Below are positions 1,924 to 16,775 of a stretch of 37,733 nucleotides of DNA, one piece after another (position 1 is the stretch's first letter; the number at the start of each line of letters is the position of its first letter). The stretch lies in assembly GCF_003334355.1 (NCBI RefSeq), contig NZ_QOWP01000034.1; one strand, 5' to 3'. Below the pieces are notes generated by a model. That model worked only from the letters and a program-made list of their open reading frames with translations. It did no database searches and had not been told where the DNA came from. The translations under genes were made by a program, and so were the position numbers. This stretch comes from Escherichia coli. Its GTDB lineage: Bacteria > Pseudomonadota > Gammaproteobacteria > Enterobacterales > Enterobacteriaceae.

Positions 1924-3243
1924 ATGGATATCTGCTCCCGAAACGAGAAATTAGCGATTAGAAGACCGGCGATACTGGTTGCACTGGCACTTTTACTGTG
2001 TAGTTGTAAAAGCACGCCTCCAGAGTCCATGGTGACACCACCAGCGGGTTCAAAGCCACCAGCCACGACGCAACAATCGTCACAACCGATGCGTGGCATC
2101 TGGCTGGCCACGGTGTCTCGCCTCGACTGGCCACCGGTTTCCTCGGTTAACATTAGTAACCCCACCAGCCGGGCCCGTGTACAAAAACAGGCGATGATCG
2201 ACAAACTGGATCATCTGCAACGTCTCGGTATAAACACGGTCTTTTTCCAGGTCAAGCCGGACGGTACCGCCCTGTGGCCATCGAAAATTTTGCCGTGGTC
2301 CGATCTTATGACCGGTAAGATTGGTGAAAATCCGGGTTACGATCCGCTGCAATTTATGCTCGACGAAGCCCACAAGCGTGGGATGAAAGTACACGCCTGG
2401 TTTAACCCCTATCGCGTATCGGTTAATACGAAGCCCGGTACTATCAGGGAACTGAATAGCACTCTGTCTCAACAACCGGCGAGCGTCTATGTGCAACACC
2501 GCGACTGGATCAGAACGTCTGGCGATCGCTTTGTCCTCGACCCGGGCATCCCTGAGGTTCAGGACTGGATCACATCAATAGTCGCAGAAGTGGTTTCCCG
2601 CTATCCCGTAGATGGCGTGCAGTTTGACGACTATTTCTATACGGAGTCACCGGGTTCACGGCTAAATGATAACGAAACGTACCGTAAATACGGAGGCGCA
2701 TTTGCGTCAAAAGCAGACTGGCGGCGCAACAATACTCAGCAGTTAATTGCAAAGGTATCGCACACCATTAAAAGCATTAAGCCGGGAGTCGAATTTGGTG
2801 TTAGCCCGGCAGGCGTGTGGCGTAACCGATCACACGATCCGCTCGGTTCCGATACCCGAGGCGCGGCAGCCTATGACGAATCCTACGCTGACACCCGTCG
2901 ATGGGTGGAACAAGGATTGCTGGATTACATTGCTCCCCAAATTTACTGGCCGTTCTCACGGAGTGCCGCGCGTTATGACGTGTTGGCAAAATGGTGGGCG
3001 GATGTCGTTAAACCGACCAGGACCCGCCTGTATATCGGTATCGCCTTCTATAAAGTGGGTGAACCTTCAAAGATAGAGCCAGACTGGATGATTAACGGCG
3101 GCGTACCGGAACTGAAAAAGCAGCTCGATCTTAACGATGCTGTGCCCGAAATTAGCGGCACCATCTTGTTCCGTGAGGACTATCTGAATAAACCGCAGAC
3201 TCAACAAGCGGTCAGCTATCTGCAAAGTCGCTGGGGCAGTTAA
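1924..3243 (+). CDS. yddW: Lipoprotein glycoside-hydrolase-like protein (YddW; I recall it also being called DigH, a divisome-associated glycosyl hydrolase)
   Basis: 439-aa ORF with an N-terminal signal peptide and Cys-containing lipobox-like segment (LALLLCSCKS). Length and sequence match E. coli YddW. The exact start codon was not verified. Confidence 0.85.
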   Translation: MDICSRNEKLAIRRPAILVALALLLCSCKSTPPESMVTPPAGSKPPATTQQSSQPMRGIWLATVSRLDWPPVSSVNISNPTSRARVQKQAMIDKLDHLQRLGINTVFFQVKPDGTALWPSKILPWSDLMTGKIGENPGYDPLQFMLDEAHKRGMKVHAWFNPYRVSVNTKPGTIRELNSTLSQQPASVYVQHRDWIRTSGDRFVLDPGIPEVQDWITSIVAEVVSRYPVDGVQFDDYFYTESPGSRLNDNETYRKYGGAFASKADWRRNNTQQLIAKVSHTIKSIKPGVEFGVSPAGVWRNRSHDPLGSDTRGAAAYDESYADTRRWVEQGLLDYIAPQIYWPFSRSAARYDVLAKWWADVVKPTRTRLYIGIAFYKVGEPSKIEPDWMINGGVPELKKQLDLNDAVPEISGTILFREDYLNKPQTQQAVSYLQSRWGS

Positions 3244-3260
3244 ACTCCCATTCTTACTTT

Positions 3261-3295
3261 GTAACAAGCCGGTGCTTTACCCACCGGCTTGTTAC
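3261..3295 (+). terminator. 14-bp perfect hairpin downstream of yddW (GTAACAAGCCGGTG / CACCGGCTTGTTAC), terminator-like
   Basis: Perfect inverted repeat 17 nt after the yddW stop. No strong T-tract, so intrinsic-terminator function is uncertain. Confidence 0.5.
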
Positions 3296-3606
3296 CCTCT
3301 TAAACTATCCCACTAATAATCATGCTTACTTAAGTCAAATTAACCACACTTAGTTAAACAGCCATAAATCCCTAATAAAAATGTATGAATATGAAAAACC
3401 ATACGATATTCGCTGTCACCGAAAAATAATTACGATGGGCTATACTCTTCTGAAGAACAGTAGCGTAGATTGAAACTGTCCTAAATCGCTTATTTCTTTT
3501 CAGTATATCTTCATATTTCAGGAGAATATGGTGCAGTTAGTCGATCTCGCACGTTGCGTTTCATTTTGATTCCGTCTGATTTCCCAGCCTTATAAGGGTG
3601 TGAATT

Positions 3607-4989
3607 ATGGAGATGTATTTTAAAAGAATGAAAGATGAGTGGACCGGACTTGTCGAACAGGCAGATCCGCCCATTCGTGCTAAAGCCGCGGAAATTGCCG
3701 TTGCGCATGCTCATTATCTGAGTATCGAGTTTTATCGAATTGTCCGCATCGACCCGCATGCCGAAGAATTCTTGAGTAATGAACAAGTTGAGCGGCAGTT
3801 GAAGAGTGCGATGGAACGCTGGATTATTAACGTGCTTTCTGCCCAGGTTGACGATGTCGAAAGGCTAATACAAATCCAGCATACCGTCGCGGAAGTGCAT
3901 GCCCGCATAGGAATTCCGGTAGAAATTGTCGAGATGGGGTTTCGGGTGCTGAAAAAAATCCTCTATCCGGTGATCTTCTCTTCGGATTATTCCGCCGCAG
4001 AAAAACTTCAGGTCTACCATTTCTCGATTAACAGTATTGATATCGCGATGGAAGTGATGACTCGCGCGTTTACCTTTAGTGACAGTAGTGCCTCAAAGGA
4101 AGATGAAAACTATCGTATCTTCTCGTTACTGGAAAACGCCGAAGAAGAAAAAGAACGGCAAATAGCCTCAATACTTTCATGGGAAATAGATATTATCTAT
4201 AAAATCCTGCTGGATTCTGATTTAGGCAGTAGTTTGCCTTTAAGCCAGGCTGATTTTGGCCTGTGGTTTAACCATAAAGGTCGACATTATTTTAGTGGTA
4301 TTGCCGAAGTAGGCCATATCTCCCGTCTGATTCAGGATTTCGACGGTATTTTCAATCAAACCATGCGTAACACCAGAAATTTGAATAACAGAAGTCTGCG
4401 GGTGAAATTTTTATTACAGATAAGAAATACCGTATCGCAAATTATTACCTTGCTGCGTGAATTGTTTGAAGAAGTATCGCGCCACGAAGTCGGTATGGAT
4501 GTACTGACGAAATTACTTAACCGCCGTTTCCTACCGACTATCTTCAAACGCGAAATTGCCCATGCCAACCGGACCGGTACACCGCTGTCAGTGCTGATTA
4601 TTGACGTTGATAAATTCAAAGAGATCAACGATACGTGGGGCCATAACACTGGTGATGAAATTCTGCGTAAAGTCTCTCAGGCCTTTTATGACAACGTCCG
4701 CAGTAGTGATTATGTTTTCCGCTACGGGGGCGATGAATTTATCATTGTTTTGACTGAAGCTTCTGAAAACGAAACGTTACGTACCGCAGAACGTATTCGC
4801 AGTCGGGTGGAGAAAACCAAACTGAAAGCCGCAAACGGCGAAGATATTGCCCTCTCACTTTCCATCGGTGCCGCCATGTTTAATGGTCATCCTGACTATG
4901 AGCGCCTCATTCAAATAGCCGATGAAGCTCTGTATATCGCCAAAAGACGAGGTAGAAACCGTGTTGAACTCTGGAAAGCCAGTCTTTAG
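3607..4989 (+). CDS. dosC: Diguanylate cyclase with N-terminal globin-type sensor domain (oxygen-sensing DGC)
   Basis: 460-aa ORF with a GGDEF active-site motif (RYGGDEFIIV) in the C-terminal half. Recognised as DosC (YddV). Immediately precedes dosP. Confidence 0.93.
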   Translation: MEMYFKRMKDEWTGLVEQADPPIRAKAAEIAVAHAHYLSIEFYRIVRIDPHAEEFLSNEQVERQLKSAMERWIINVLSAQVDDVERLIQIQHTVAEVHARIGIPVEIVEMGFRVLKKILYPVIFSSDYSAAEKLQVYHFSINSIDIAMEVMTRAFTFSDSSASKEDENYRIFSLLENAEEEKERQIASILSWEIDIIYKILLDSDLGSSLPLSQADFGLWFNHKGRHYFSGIAEVGHISRLIQDFDGIFNQTMRNTRNLNNRSLRVKFLLQIRNTVSQIITLLRELFEEVSRHEVGMDVLTKLLNRRFLPTIFKREIAHANRTGTPLSVLIIDVDKFKEINDTWGHNTGDEILRKVSQAFYDNVRSSDYVFRYGGDEFIIVLTEASENETLRTAERIRSRVEKTKLKAANGEDIALSLSIGAAMFNGHPDYERLIQIADEALYIAKRRGRNRVELWKASL

Positions 4990-5013
4990 ATGCGCCAGGA
5001 TGCAGAGGTAATC

Positions 5014-7413
5014 ATGAAGCTAACCGATGCGGATAATGCCGCCGATGGCATTTTTTTCCCCGCCCTTGAGCAAAATATGATGGGTGCGGTGTTAATTAAC
5101 GAAAATGATGAAGTGATGTTTTTCAACCCCGCCGCAGAGAAGCTCTGGGGATACAAACGTGAAGAAGTCATTGGCAATAACATTGATATGCTGATTCCGC
5201 GGGATTTGCGTCCTGCGCATCCTGAATACATTCGTCACAACCGTGAAGGCGGTAAAGCGCGTGTTGAGGGGATGAGTCGGGAGCTGCAGCTGGAGAAAAA
5301 AGACGGCAGTAAAATCTGGACCCGTTTTGCGCTATCGAAAGTGAGCGCCGAGGGGAAAGTTTATTACCTGGCGCTGGTACGGGATGCCAGCGTAGAAATG
5401 GCGCAAAAAGAACAGACCCGACAATTGATTATTGCCGTTGACCATCTCGACCGACCGGTGATTGTCCTCGATCCGGAACGCCATATTGTGCAGTGCAATC
5501 GCGCATTTACCGAAATGTTTGGTTACTGCATTAGCGAAGCCAGCGGTATGCAGCCCGATACACTCCTGAACATTCCTGAATTCCCTGCCGATAACCGCAT
5601 TCGTTTACAACAGTTGCTATGGAAAACCGCCCACGATCAGGACGAATTTCTGCTGTTGACGCGCACCGGTGAAAAAATCTGGATTAAAGCCTCTATCAGC
5701 CCGGTTTATGACGTGCTCGCGCATCTGCAGAACCTGGTAATGACTTTCTCGGATATCACCGAAGAACGGCAGATTCGCCAGCTTGAAGGCAATATTCTCG
5801 CCGCCATGTGCAGCAGCCCGCCATTTCATGAAATGGGGGAAATCATTTGTCGTAACATCGAATCTGTACTCAACGAATCGCATGTTTCGCTGTTCGCACT
5901 GCGCAACGGGATGCCGATACACTGGGCGTCATCTTCCCACGGTGCAGAAATTCAAAATGCGCAAAGCTGGTCAGCGACCATTCGTCAGCGTGATGGCGCG
6001 CCTGCGGGGATCCTGCAAATTAAAACCTCGTCAGGAGCAGAAACCAGCGCCTTTATCGAACGCGTGGCAGATATCAGCCAGCATATGGCCGCGCTGGCGC
6101 TGGAACAGGAAAAAAGCCGTCAGCATATTGAACAACTCATCCAATTTGATCCGATGACCGGTCTGCCAAATCGCAATAACCTGCACAATTACCTCGATGA
6201 CCTGGTCGACAAAGCCGTCTCTCCCGTGGTGTATCTCATCGGTGTTGACCATATTCAGGATGTGATTGATAGCCTTGGCTATGCGTGGGCCGATCAGGCA
6301 TTGCTGGAAGTGGTCAATCGCTTTCGTGAAAAACTCAAACCGGATCAGTATCTCTGTCGTATCGAAGGTACGCAGTTTGTCCTCGTGAGCCTCGAAAACG
6401 ACGTCAGTAACATTACCCAAATCGCCGATGAGCTACGGAATGTGGTCAGCAAGCCGATAATGATTGACGATAAACCCTTCCCGCTTACCTTGAGTATTGG
6501 CATCAGCTACGACCTGGGTAAAAACCGCGATTACTTGCTCTCCACTGCTCACAATGCAATGGATTATATTCGCAAGAATGGCGGTAACGGCTGGCAGTTC
6601 TTCAGCCCGGCGATGAACGAAATGGTAAAAGAGCGTTTGGTTTTAGGCGCAGCGCTGAAAGAAGCGATTAGCAATAACCAACTGAAACTGGTTTACCAGC
6701 CGCAAATATTCGCAGAAACGGGTGAACTGTACGGCATCGAAGCCCTTGCTCGCTGGCACGATCCCCTGCATGGTCATGTGCCCCCTTCACGGTTTATTCC
6801 TCTCGCAGAAGAGATTGGTGAAATCGAAAATATTGGGCGCTGGGTCATCGCGGAAGCTTGCCGTCAGTTAGCAGAATGGCGTAGCCAGAATATTCATATC
6901 CCGGCGTTATCCGTGAACTTGTCGGCGCTGCACTTTCGCAGTAATCAACTGCCTAATCAGGTGTCTGATGCAATGCACGCCTGGGGTATTGACGGCCACC
7001 AGCTGACGGTAGAAATCACGGAAAGCATGATGATGGAACACGATACCGAAATCTTTAAGCGCATTCAGATCCTGCGTGATATGGGCGTGGGCTTATCGGT
7101 AGATGATTTTGGTACGGGCTTTTCCGGATTATCCCGCTTAGTCAGTCTTCCGGTAACGGAAATCAAAATTGACAAAAGTTTTGTCGATCGTTGTCTGACC
7201 GAAAAACGCATCCTTGCCTTACTTGAAGCCATTACCAGCATTGGGCAAAGCCTCAATTTAACCGTCGTGGCGGAAGGCGTCGAAACCAAAGAGCAATTTG
7301 AGATGCTACGCAAGATCCACTGTCGCGTTATTCAGGGATATTTCTTTTCCCGCCCCCTACCCGCCGAAGAAATTCCAGGCTGGATGAGCAGCGTGTTACC
7401 GCTGAAAATCTGA
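5014..7413 (+). CDS. dosP: Heme-PAS oxygen-sensing c-di-GMP phosphodiesterase (PAS-PAS-GGDEF-like-EAL)
   Basis: 799 aa from ATG 5014 (MKLTDADNAADGIFFPALEQ...). EAL motif (YGIEALARW) in the C-terminal domain. The ORF-track start at 4990 is an upstream in-frame extension that overlaps the dosC stop. Confidence 0.93.
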   Translation: MKLTDADNAADGIFFPALEQNMMGAVLINENDEVMFFNPAAEKLWGYKREEVIGNNIDMLIPRDLRPAHPEYIRHNREGGKARVEGMSRELQLEKKDGSKIWTRFALSKVSAEGKVYYLALVRDASVEMAQKEQTRQLIIAVDHLDRPVIVLDPERHIVQCNRAFTEMFGYCISEASGMQPDTLLNIPEFPADNRIRLQQLLWKTAHDQDEFLLLTRTGEKIWIKASISPVYDVLAHLQNLVMTFSDITEERQIRQLEGNILAAMCSSPPFHEMGEIICRNIESVLNESHVSLFALRNGMPIHWASSSHGAEIQNAQSWSATIRQRDGAPAGILQIKTSSGAETSAFIERVADISQHMAALALEQEKSRQHIEQLIQFDPMTGLPNRNNLHNYLDDLVDKAVSPVVYLIGVDHIQDVIDSLGYAWADQALLEVVNRFREKLKPDQYLCRIEGTQFVLVSLENDVSNITQIADELRNVVSKPIMIDDKPFPLTLSIGISYDLGKNRDYLLSTAHNAMDYIRKNGGNGWQFFSPAMNEMVKERLVLGAALKEAISNNQLKLVYQPQIFAETGELYGIEALARWHDPLHGHVPPSRFIPLAEEIGEIENIGRWVIAEACRQLAEWRSQNIHIPALSVNLSALHFRSNQLPNQVSDAMHAWGIDGHQLTVEITESMMMEHDTEIFKRIQILRDMGVGLSVDDFGTGFSGLSRLVSLPVTEIKIDKSFVDRCLTEKRILALLEAITSIGQSLNLTVVAEGVETKEQFEMLRKIHCRVIQGYFFSRPLPAEEIPGWMSSVLPLKI

Positions 7414-7426
7414 CAAATTCCTCTCG

Positions 7427-7444
7427 CCCGCACTCGCGGGTTTT
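7427..7444 (+). terminator. Short GC hairpin plus T-tract after dosP (CCCGC-ACTC-GCGGG-TTTT)
   Basis: Read from the sequence, 14 nt after the dosP stop. The stem is only 5 bp, so strength is modest. Confidence 0.55.
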
Positions 7445-7610
7445 CATTTAACGTGACACTGTCACTTAAATACTGTGATTTCAGCTACGATTCCGGGAGA
7501 TTCCTTCCTTAACTTCCCCTCTTGCACCAAAACTGCACTACGCTGCACAAATGTTGATCAAAAGTTAAAAAATATAACTTTAAGCCAGCATTCTGGCGCT
7601 TATCCCGGCA

Positions 7611-7626
7611 TGGCATGAGATCTGCA
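7611..7626 (+). promoter_or_regulatory. Sigma-54 (RpoN) -24/-12 type promoter upstream of ddpX (TGGCAT-N5-CTGCA)
   Basis: TGGCATGAGATCTGCA has GG and GC separated by exactly 10 nt, matching the sigma-54 consensus TGGCACG-N4-TTGCA at most positions. Located 45-60 nt upstream of the ddpX ATG. A GCAC-rich cluster at 7523-7549 resembles NtrC-type enhancer half-sites. Confidence 0.6.
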
Positions 7627-7670
7627 TAAGCGGAAAGCGCAGCAATTTTTGTCTTATACAGGAACCGTTT

Positions 7671-8252
7671 ATGTCGGATACCACCGAACTGGTTGATTTA
7701 GCCGTAATCTTCCCTGATCTGGAGATCGAATTGAAATACGCCTGCGCTGATAACATCACAGGTAAAGCTATTTATCAGCAAGCGCGTTGTCTGTTACACA
7801 AGGATGCGATTACCGCGCTGGCGAAAAGTATCAGCATCGCCCAGCTGTCAGGGTTACAACTGGTGATTTACGATGCGTATCGCCCACAACAAGCACAGGC
7901 GATGTTGTGGCAAGCCTGCCCAGACCCGCAATATGTTGTTGATGTGACGGTCGGTTCTAATCACAGCCGTGGCACGGCGATCGACCTGACGCTTCGTGAT
8001 GAGCACGGGAACATCCTCGATATGGGCGCAGGGTTCGATGAAATGCACGAGCGCTCCCATGCCTATCACCCTTCCGTCCCGCCCGCCGCTCAGCGCAATC
8101 GGCTGTTGCTGAATGCGATAATGACTGGTGGCGGTTTTGTCGGTATCTCCAGCGAATGGTGGCACTTCGAATTACCCCAGGCAGCGAGTTACCCTCTGCT
8201 CGCTGATCAATTCTCTTGTTTTATATCCCCTGGCACACAGCACGTCAGTTAA
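7671..8252 (+). CDS. ddpX: D-Ala-D-Ala dipeptidase (VanX homolog, Zn-dependent)
   Basis: 193-aa ORF. The SNHSRGTAIDLT and EWWHFE segments are typical of the VanX/DdpX family. First gene of the ddp operon. Confidence 0.93.
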   Translation: MSDTTELVDLAVIFPDLEIELKYACADNITGKAIYQQARCLLHKDAITALAKSISIAQLSGLQLVIYDAYRPQQAQAMLWQACPDPQYVVDVTVGSNHSRGTAIDLTLRDEHGNILDMGAGFDEMHERSHAYHPSVPPAAQRNRLLLNAIMTGGGFVGISSEWWHFELPQAASYPLLADQFSCFISPGTQHVS

Positions 8253-15077: not shown

Positions 15078-16775
15078 ATGGAACCAAAAACAAAAAAACA
15101 GCGTTCGCTTTATATCCCTTACGCTGGCCCTGTACTGCTGGAATTTCCGTTGTTGAATAAAGGCAGTGCCTTCAGCATGGAAGAACGCCGTAACTTCAAC
15201 CTGCTGGGGTTACTGCCGGAAGTGGTCGAAACCATCGAAGAACAAGCGGAACGAGCATGGATCCAGTATCAGGGATTCAAAACCGAAATCGACAAACACA
15301 TCTACCTGCGTAACATCCAGGACACCAACGAAACCCTCTTCTACCGTCTGGTAAACAATCATCTTGATGAGATGATGCCTGTTATTTATACCCCAACCGT
15401 CGGCGCAGCCTGTGAGCGTTTTTCTGAGATCTACCGCCGTTCACGCGGCGTGTTTATCTCTTACCAGAACCGGCACAATATGGACGATATTCTGCAAAAC
15501 GTGCCGAACCATAATATTAAAGTGATTGTGGTGACTGACGGTGAACGTATTCTGGGGCTTGGTGACCAGGGCATCGGCGGGATGGGCATTCCGATCGGTA
15601 AACTGTCGCTCTATACCGCCTGTGGCGGCATCAGCCCGGCGTATACCCTTCCGGTGGTGCTGGATGTCGGAACGAACAACCAACAGCTGCTTAACGATCC
15701 GCTGTATATGGGCTGGCGTAATCCGCGTATCACTGACGACGAATACTATGAATTCGTTGATGAATTTATCCAGGCTGTGAAACAACGCTGGCCAGACGTG
15801 CTGTTGCAGTTTGAAGACTTTGCTCAAAAAAATGCGATGCCGTTACTTAACCGCTATCGCAATGAAATTTGTTCTTTTAACGATGACATTCAGGGCACTG
15901 CGGCGGTAACAGTCGGCACACTGATCGCAGCAAGTCGAGCGGCAGGTGGTCAGTTAAGCGAGAAAAAAATCGTCTTCCTTGGTGCAGGTTCAGCGGGATG
16001 CGGCATTGCCGAAATGATCATCGCCCAGACCCAGCGCGAAGGATTAAGCGAGGAAGCGGCGCGGCAGAAAGTCTTTATGGTCGATCGCTTTGGCTTGCTG
16101 ACCGACAAGATGCCGAACCTGCTGCCTTTCCAGACCAAACTGGTGCAGAAACGCGAAAACCTCAGTGACTGGGATACCGACAGCGATGTGCTGTCACTGC
16201 TGGATGTGGTGCGCAATGTAAAACCAGATATTCTGATTGGCGTCTCAGGACAGACCGGGCTGTTTACGGAAGAGATCATCCGTGAGATGCATAAACACTG
16301 TCCGCGTCCGATCGTGATGCCGCTATCTAACCCGACGTCACGCGTGGAAGCCACACCGCAGGACATTATCGCCTGGACCGAAGGTAACGCGCTGGTCGCC
16401 ACTGGCAGCCCGTTTAATCCAGTGGTATGGAAAGATAAAATCTACCCTATCGCCCAGTGTAACAACGCCTTTATTTTCCCGGGCATCGGTCTGGGTGTTA
16501 TTGCTTCCGGCGCGTCACGTATCACCGATGAGATGCTGATGTCAGCAAGTGAAACGCTTGCTCAGTATTCGCCGCTGGTCCTGAACGGCGAAGGTCTGGT
16601 ACTACCGGAACTGAAAGATATTCAGAAAGTCTCCCGCGCAATTGCGTTTGCGGTTGGCAAAATGGCGCAGCAGCAAGGCGTGGCGGTGAAAACCTCTGCC
16701 GAAGCCCTGCAACAGGCCATTGACGATAATTTCTGGCAAGCCGAATACCGCGACTACCGCCGTACCTCCATCTAA
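15078..16775 (+). CDS. maeA: NAD-dependent malic enzyme
   Basis: 565 aa from ATG 15078 ([23 protein letters not shown]...). Rossmann motif [10 protein letters not shown]. The ORF-track start at 15051 is an upstream extension. Confidence 0.93.

Follow-up and report, generated by a model that had tools for sequence, protein, structure and literature searches.

The dosC–dosP oxygen-sensor operon and its AT-rich leader in a K-12-like strain of Escherichia coli

We analysed a stretch of 37,733 nucleotides of Escherichia coli DNA (NCBI RefSeq assembly GCF_003334355.1, contig NZ_QOWP01000034.1; hereafter the window), in which positions 3296–7413 had been assigned by a preliminary description to dosC and dosP, a paired heme-sensor diguanylate cyclase and phosphodiesterase behind an AT-rich leader. 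The region contains two co-directional open reading frames (ORFs) on the plus strand, one of 460 residues (3607–4989) and one of 807 residues when counted from its first ATG (4990–7413). The first is 100% identical in both DNA and protein to dosC of E. coli K-12 MG1655 (b1490), as is the entire 363 nt spacer between digH and dosC, and dosP differs from its K-12 counterpart (b1489) at two nucleotides, one of them non-synonymous (99.9% identity). The window is collinear with the K-12 chromosome from gadB to narZ in two blocks of 99.8% and 98.9% identity, with the gene order gadB-gadC-digH-dosC-dosP-ddpXABC as in K-12. A megablast search with positions 3200–7500 against 5426 complete E. coli genomes gave matches to the locus in 5414; among the matches listed, the genes are annotated as dosC (diguanylate cyclase DosC) and dosP [oxygen-sensing cyclic di-GMP (c-di-GMP) phosphodiesterase DosP] beside digH.

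The region is almost certainly the chromosomal dosCP operon (dgcO-pdeO, formerly yddV-yddU/dos) of a strain very close to K-12, and this confidence takes in the transcription and protein model given below. The analysis itself shows which genes these are, how their domains are arranged, the key residues, the synteny, the way in which conservation varies along the leader and where the small upstream ORF yddY lies. Nothing contradicts the gene identification, which is effectively beyond refutation because the sequence is identical to that of characterized genes. The boundaries first proposed also hold, with dosC starting at position 3607 and the dosP stop codon ending at 7413. The operon is already known. 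This pair of heme oxygen sensors is a textbook case, extensively published and structurally solved, and the present copy, being essentially the K-12 allele, carries little weight as a discovery. The gains are in annotation, namely the placing of yddY in the leader, the 799-residue start of DosP and the division of the leader into conserved and neutral parts. The features of the region are listed in Table 1.

Table 1. Features of the dosCP region and its flanks. Positions are those of the window; identities of the leader blocks and of the neutral reference are to four other Escherichia lineages.
Feature	Position	Strand	Details
digH	1924–3243		Upstream of dosC; stop at 3243
Perfect 14 bp inverted repeat, 7 nt loop	3261–3295	+	18 nt past the digH stop; arms 100% complementary
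Distal AT-rich spacer	3296–3384	+	43–53% identity
Putative promoter block	3385–3452	+	85–93% identity
Putative 5′ untranslated region (5′UTR) of the dosCP mRNA	3453–3606	+	About 147–154 nt
5′UTR, part 1	3453–3518	+	85–91% identity
yddY Shine–Dalgarno sequence (SD) and ATG	3519–3530	+	100% identity
yddY (b4746)	3528–3569	+	13 codons plus stop; SD AGGAGA at 3519–3524
yddY body	3531–3569	+	67–74% identity
yddY stop to dosC ATG	3570–3606	+	76–89% identity
dosC (dgcO, yddV)	3607–4989	+	460 residues; GGDEF and globin; b1490
DosC layout			Globin, residues ∼1–155; middle domain, 173–298; GGDEF domain, 297–460
dosC four-fold degenerate sites (neutral reference)	within 3607–4986		49–58% identity
Intercistronic spacer, 24 nt	4990–5013	+	dosP SD AGAGG at 5004–5008
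dosP (pdeO, yddU, dos)	5014–7413	+	799-residue heme-PAS c-di-GMP phosphodiesterase
Terminator-like hairpin, GCCCGCACTCGCGGGT then TTTTCATTT	7423–7447	+	10 nt past the dosP stop; from terminator scan
ddpX	7671–8252		Downstream of dosP

The layout is that of an operon: the two genes are adjacent and co-directional with a 24 nt spacer, the junction lacks a strong terminator and the hairpin with its T-run beyond dosP is likely to be the operon end. Upstream, the inverted repeat past digH marks the 3′ end of that gene and the upstream boundary of the AT-rich leader; no T-run follows it. A scan of positions 3000–7900 against Rfam at a permissive threshold gave a sub-threshold match to rli61 over this hairpin as its sole match, which we regard as chance (24.2 bits against a gathering score of 50; E = 0.4). 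The K-12 locus (b1490, b1489 and yddY, b4746) shares the order digH-yddY-dosC-dosP-ddpX, the leader, the domains, the heme ligands, the motifs and the terminator, and differs by two dosP changes that are private to the window, 5633 G>A and a change at 6708.

DosC consists of three domains. Pfam places a Protoglobin domain (PF11563) at residues 27–155 (E = 4.7e-10), the helical DosC-specific middle domain (DosC_2nd, PF21118) at residues 180–289 with the whole model covered (E = 6.8e-49) and a GGDEF domain (PF00990) at residues 297–452 (E = 1.7e-50); TIGR00254 scores 178 bits against a cut-off of 37.4. The N-terminal sensor domain originally proposed for the cyclase is this globin, and the proposed architecture of sensor plus GGDEF was simplified, as the middle domain lies between the two. 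The GGDEF motif is intact (residues 374–378, nt 4726–4740), with RSSD five residues upstream. The sensor-defining residues Tyr43 and Gln60 (both distal), Leu65 and His98 (proximal; codon 3898–3900) are all present. Residues 1–170 match the structures deposited as 'Diguanylate cyclase DosC' (PDB entries 4zva and 4zvb; E = 1e-96 to 1e-101), and the crystal structures 4zva, 4zvb, 4zvc and 4zve together span all three domains, with 4zvc representing the middle domain. The sensor globin, the middle domain, the intact GGDEF motif and orthology with b1490 between digH and dosP all identify the protein as DosC, and its heme binding and oxygen-dependent cyclase activity are known from the literature on the identical K-12 protein (PMC11543664, PMC8846402). 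As a separate observation, an 18 nt PhoB box, CTGTAATAAAAATTTCAC, is matched exactly on the minus strand at 4402–4419 inside dosC. This box has been reported to be bound by PhoB within the yddV coding region (PMC3465305). It sits in the AT-rich part of the gene that encodes the middle domain (G+C content of 37–41% over positions 4000–4400).

DosP is arranged in the order heme-PAS, PAS-PAC, a silent cyclase domain and EAL, as described for the K-12 protein together with its EGTQF sequence (PMC11543664). Pfam finds PAS_9 twice (E = 1.5e-13 and 1.8e-11), a GGDEF-like domain at residues 386–533 (E = 1.9e-21) and an EAL domain at residues 555–789 (E = 2.5e-69). The NCBIfam equivalog NF008467 scores 1641.7 bits against a cut-off of 857, with residues 1–799 aligned to profile positions 1–800. 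In the historic 807-residue numbering, EGTQF takes the place of GGDEF at residues 459–463 (nt 6364–6378), the EAL motif lies at residues 584–586 (nt 6739–6747) and the heme residues are His77 (proximal; codon 5218–5220), Met95 (codon 5272–5274) and Arg97, which form the distal switch, and Leu99. The protein matches the heme-PAS structures 1v9y and 1s66 and the full-length electron cryomicroscopy structures, including 9bgv and 9cdr. The full-length NF008467 match, the heme-PAS ligands and the PAS(-PAC), EGTQF and EAL elements identify it as DosP, for which oxygen-stimulated hydrolysis of c-di-GMP to pGpG is reported in the literature on the K-12 protein. The domain searches thus return the globin or PAS plus GGDEF or EAL architecture on which the preliminary description had staked the assignment, and both motifs that it noted are present; its PAS-EAL phosphodiesterase is right as to the PAS and EAL domains and too simple as to the whole, which is PAS-PAS-GGDEF(degenerate)-EAL. 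The oxygen-controlled c-di-GMP turnover that it proposed agrees with the literature (PMC11543664, PMC8846402, PMC5635695).

The start of dosP requires comment. The dosC stop codon (TAG, 4987–4989) directly abuts an in-frame ATG at 4990, in keeping with the first impression that dosP immediately follows dosC, and the RefSeq start is the ATG 24 nt further on at 5014. The intervening segment encodes the eight extra residues (MRQDAEVI) of the 807-residue Dos numbering, which is a historical convention; UniProt entry P76129 omits them (PMC11543664). A start at 4990, with translation coupled to that of dosC through the TAG-ATG junction, would suit an ORF that is open from this position and a stop–start arrangement that is classic for coupling, and all structural work uses the 807 numbering and constructs that contain MRQDAEVI. 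The comparative data point the other way. ATG 4990 is replaced by ATT in the divergent lineage E. coli E69, and at three Citrobacter loci the upstream frame lacks an in-frame ATG and is closed within 1–9 codons, whereas GCAGAGGTAA and the codons ATG-AAG-CTA are kept in E69 and in all three Citrobacter loci. A good SD (AGAGG) lies 5 nt before ATG 5014, compared with a weak one before 4990, and RefSeq, UniProt and the NCBIfam profile all place the protein at 799 or 800 residues. These comparisons favour ATG 5014 as the probable native start, and we consider a start at 4990 highly improbable.

The terminator scan also flagged positions 5035–5052, 21 nt into dosP, where a hairpin of seven pairs is followed by TTTTTTCC. 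An attenuator here would lower dosP expression relative to dosC, and the stem is kept in four Escherichia lineages in which the loop changes. Against this, only three of the seven pairs are G–C, the scan returned seven sites in total where 4.4 ± 2.0 are expected by chance, the hairpin is absent in Citrobacter and the sequence is under coding constraint (NAADGIFF). We rejected the site as a terminator on finding the fold of the junction (4960–5080) indistinguishable from shuffles (z = +0.58), and an attenuator at this position is extremely improbable.

The leader (3296–3606) was correctly described as AT-rich: its G+C content is 35.4% compared with 50.3% for the whole window, which places it in the 4th percentile of 311 nt windows and makes it the third most AT-rich locus. 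We aligned the leader with those of E. whittamii, E. albertii and two divergent E. coli lineages, using the four-fold degenerate sites of dosC as the neutral reference. The distal ∼90 nt are an unconstrained spacer drifting at the neutral rate, their identity being the same as that of the four-fold degenerate sites (Table 1). The proximal ∼220 nt (3385–3606) are conserved at 76–100% by block across Escherichia, the body of yddY excepted, and with the same exception are under purifying selection. The complex regulation suggested for the leader is accordingly borne out in its proximal part, which is constrained and contains the translated yddY, and not in its distal 90 nt. The distal spacer is also polymorphic for indels. 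A 12 nt insertion, AATTAACCACGC, is present in BL21(DE3) and MY504; it is a near-tandem duplicate of the adjacent AATTAACCACAC, which occurs as a single copy in the window and in K-12. Direct repeats in the leader were limited to two short two-copy families, which we take as chance.

The suggestion of H-NS binding rests on the AT-richness only. If the leader were mainly an H-NS-bound silenced tract, dosCP expression would be set chiefly by relief from H-NS. Such a role would be in line with the low G+C content; the neighbouring gadBC is a known H-NS target, and H-NS repression and sigma-S dependence often coincide. The conservation pattern fits it poorly, however, since the most AT-rich distal part (3296–3384) evolves neutrally and the conserved part resembles a specific promoter and 5′UTR; moreover, the locus is core E. 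coli rather than horizontally acquired, and a literature search for yddV with H-NS returned nothing relevant and no binding data. We regard control chiefly by H-NS as unlikely. The most AT-rich part of the window lies elsewhere, at 24300–26500 (G+C content of 28–33%, far more AT-rich than the dosC leader), and maps by K-12 collinearity to yddL-yddK-yddJ between yddG and narU.

The heptamer CTATACT at 3440–3446 is invariant in all six Escherichia leaders compared. An extended −10 element for sigma-S consists of a C at −13 followed by TATACT, which this sequence fits, and we infer that it is the −10 element of a sigma-S-type dosCP promoter. RpoS dependence of dosCP has been reported (PMC11543664, PMC5635695), as has co-transcription of the two genes (PMC11543664, PMC5635695, PMC5435950). 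A dosC 5′UTR of 147 nt was reported in BL21(DE3) (PMC5435950); past CTATACT the BL21 leader is free of indels, and the published 5′ end therefore maps near position 3460 of the window, upstream of yddY.

A working model can be put together from these elements. Transcription most likely starts at the sigma-S-dependent promoter in the conserved proximal spacer and would yield a 5′UTR of ∼150 nt carrying the translated 13-codon yddY. The transcript would then run through dosC, the 24 nt spacer with its own SD and dosP, and would end at the hairpin and T-run at 7423–7447. DosC, a globin-coupled diguanylate cyclase, makes c-di-GMP from GTP under the control of its globin heme; DosP, a heme-PAS phosphodiesterase, linearizes it to pGpG upon binding of O2 to its heme. 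In stationary phase the two jointly adjust local c-di-GMP to the oxygen tension. Both proteins are sigma-S-induced, abundant in stationary phase and associated with RNase E and polynucleotide phosphorylase (PNPase) (PMC11543664, PMC5635695, PMC8846402, PMC12360218); they have been reported within the RNase E/PNPase degradosome complex, with effects on the output of curli, poly-N-acetylglucosamine (PNAG) and colanic acid. RpoS control, co-transcription, oxygen responses and partners in this model come from the literature, and the exact promoter, the transcription start and any role for yddY from our reading of the sequence.

Several observations weigh against this model or parts of it. The published 5′ end lies ∼14 nt past the proposed −10 element, beyond the usual ∼7 nt, an offset that is acceptable only because the BL21(DE3) study appears to be probe (array) based, so that its resolution is probably limited; the 5′UTR length comes from this study alone, and the sigma-S in vitro and ChIP-seq (chromatin immunoprecipitation sequencing) papers do not mention dosC. 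The leader yielded no site in a sigma-70 consensus scan for which a −35 match is obligatory, a negative that is uninformative for sigma-S promoters lacking a −35 element. In published genomic SELEX (systematic evolution of ligands by exponential enrichment), the RpoS holoenzyme gave a peak within digH and the RpoH holoenzyme one in the spacer, and for this reason the promoter assignment is not settled. Reviews disagree as to whether O2 activates or inhibits DosC (PMC8846402 versus PMC11543664). Finally, the DosP of the window itself departs from the K-12 protein at a conserved arginine, R215H (R207H in the 799 numbering).

This substitution results from G>A at 5633 (codon 5632–5634) and lies in the second PAS domain. 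The arginine is conserved in the Escherichia, Citrobacter and Phytobacter orthologues, and the change is private: the surrounding 67 nt are matched exactly in none of the 5228 complete E. coli genomes that have the segment (best match 98.5%). The second dosP change, at 6708, is synonymous, and none of the three alleles compared (K-12, Z1323PEC0012 and STEC276) has it. The two changes could be real private variants, laboratory mutations or sequencing errors. Whether R215H alters DosP signalling is a testable lead.

The small ORF yddY, which the preliminary description overlooked, is annotated in K-12 with a sequence identical to that of the window and ends 37 nt upstream of dosC. Its SD and ATG are invariant in Escherichia and its body ranges from 2 to 20 codons. 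The product has 13 residues in K-12, BL21, O157 and most E. coli, with R9H or C10R variants; in the E. coli variant T16R a 5 nt deletion gives 20 residues with a different tail, and in two divergent E. coli lineages, E. whittamii and E. albertii the ORF encodes only MVP*, MVL*, MVR* or MM* (2–3 codons). In the ∼1100 genomes with a dosC deletion (see below) it is fused to unrelated sequence, and it is absent from the Citrobacter leaders examined. These differences between lineages argue against a conserved peptide function, and the pattern is compatible with a cis-acting upstream ORF (uORF) or with incidental translation. A functional peptide, for example a small regulator of DosC or DosP, would accord with the near-fixation of the 13-residue sequence within most E. 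coli and with the detection of the YddY product by chromosomal SPA (sequential peptide affinity) tagging (PMC6001520). Its body is nevertheless the least conserved part of the 5′UTR (67–74%), and the truncated, replaced, fused and missing versions listed above all count against such a peptide, which we judge improbable.

Another reading is that yddY is a cis-acting, translated mini-uORF of the dosCP 5′UTR rather than a peptide gene; we find this quite doubtful. The yddY initiation region (3495–3535) is predicted to pair with the dosC initiation region (3587–3626) at −25.5 kcal/mol, compared with −17.9 ± 2.8 kcal/mol for 1000 dinucleotide shuffles, 1.5% of which do as well. Ribosomes loading at yddY might then expose the dosC start site or compete with it, and in this way adjust the amount of DosC and its ratio to DosP. 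The consensus fold of eight Escherichia sequences shows no covariation in support, several changes break predicted pairs and an invariant 12 nt motif within a UTR conserved at 85–91% is unremarkable in itself. The putative 5′UTR as a whole folds only marginally better than shuffles (z = −1.9; 8 of 200 as good), and a conserved structure was rejected because the covariation term of the eight-sequence fold is unfavourable (+1.58) and most changes break pairs. Like the enterobacterial leader peptides and 'start–stop' mini-ORFs, yddY is short and translated, has a strong SD and is reduced to 2–3 codons in sister lineages; unlike the leader-peptide systems, it has neither a run of regulatory codons nor a terminator/antiterminator pair, and the comparison is one of resemblance only. 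Whether yddY translation controls dosC can be tested.

When one genome per species was scanned, Escherichia, Citrobacter, Kluyvera, Phytobacter, Enterobacter and Trabulsiella yielded DosC orthologues of full length. dosC is followed by dosP in Escherichia, Citrobacter sedlakii, C. amalonaticus, Phytobacter and one Trabulsiella paralogue, and the dosP SD and ATG are conserved together with the pairing in Escherichia and Citrobacter. In Kluyvera and Enterobacter dosC is not followed by dosP, so that DosC occurs without DosP, and the flanks of distant full-length DosC relatives (35–37% identity) gave no DosP match. Trabulsiella odontotermitis and T. guamensis carry two or three DosC paralogues per genome (59–63% identical to E. 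coli DosC), only one of which is followed by a dosP homologue (45% identical). A 398 nt contig in the assembly of Oceanospirillum linum ATCC 11336 (coverage 0.9) encodes DosC residues 1–79 at 100% identity to E. coli and is almost certainly E. coli contamination.

The same sensor globin and GGDEF design is found in Pectobacterium DgcO/PccGCS and Bordetella BpeGReg (PDB entries 4uii, 4uiq and 6m9a), the globins of which are homologous to that of DosC (E = 1e-13 to 1e-19) in otherwise distant sequences. Like DosP, PdeR (YciR) of E. coli and RbdA and MucR of Pseudomonas (PDB entries 5xgb, 4rnh and 5m3c) combine a PAS input with a catalytic EAL domain and have a GGDEF domain that is silent or regulatory; the GGDEF-EAL part of DosP strongly matches structures of this type. 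To our knowledge, PdeR, RbdA and MucR have no heme-binding PAS domain with a His77/Met95 ligand switch; unlike DosP, they are not encoded beside a partner cyclase.

A common E. coli allele, carried by about 1100 of the 5426 genomes (for example MY504, positions 1545–2110), lacks most of dosC. In this allele the leader is kept to window position 3561, inside yddY, and is joined to a 47 nt dosC fragment (4248–4294), which is followed by the last 165 nt of dosC and an intact dosP; the native promoter thus still precedes dosP, while the cyclase partner is lost. The ddp operon is missing as well, and osmC follows dosP. Loss of DosC in some strains has already been reported, according to a passage of PMC5635171 that cites Povolotsky & Hengge (2016). 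Insertion sequences (ISs) have split dosC independently in near-identical alleles, with IS1A in STEC276 (locus at 1487–2257) and the IS4-like ISVsa5 in Z1323CEC0002. In the E. albertii type strain NBRC 107761 (positions 4501–6583), dosC (residues 1–352) is joined out of frame to dosP (from residue 453) and dosP is further interrupted, leaving both genes as pseudogenes. We considered an in-frame dosC–dosP chimera in this strain and rejected it, as the parts lie in different frames and dosP is further broken. An OsmC-like ORF, identified from its translation, directly follows the E. albertii dosP on the minus strand, an arrangement shared with the E. coli deletion allele. Matches to the dosCP region also occur in five E. 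coli plasmid records, although the locus is a core chromosomal one; these may be assembly artefacts or large pieces of chromosomal origin.

The first 18.5 kb of the window show 38 differences from K-12, of which nine cluster within 285 nt in the 5′ part of digH (1945–2229) and another 20 at 15935–16604. Judging from this distribution, both clusters look like small recombination patches in a K-12-like background.

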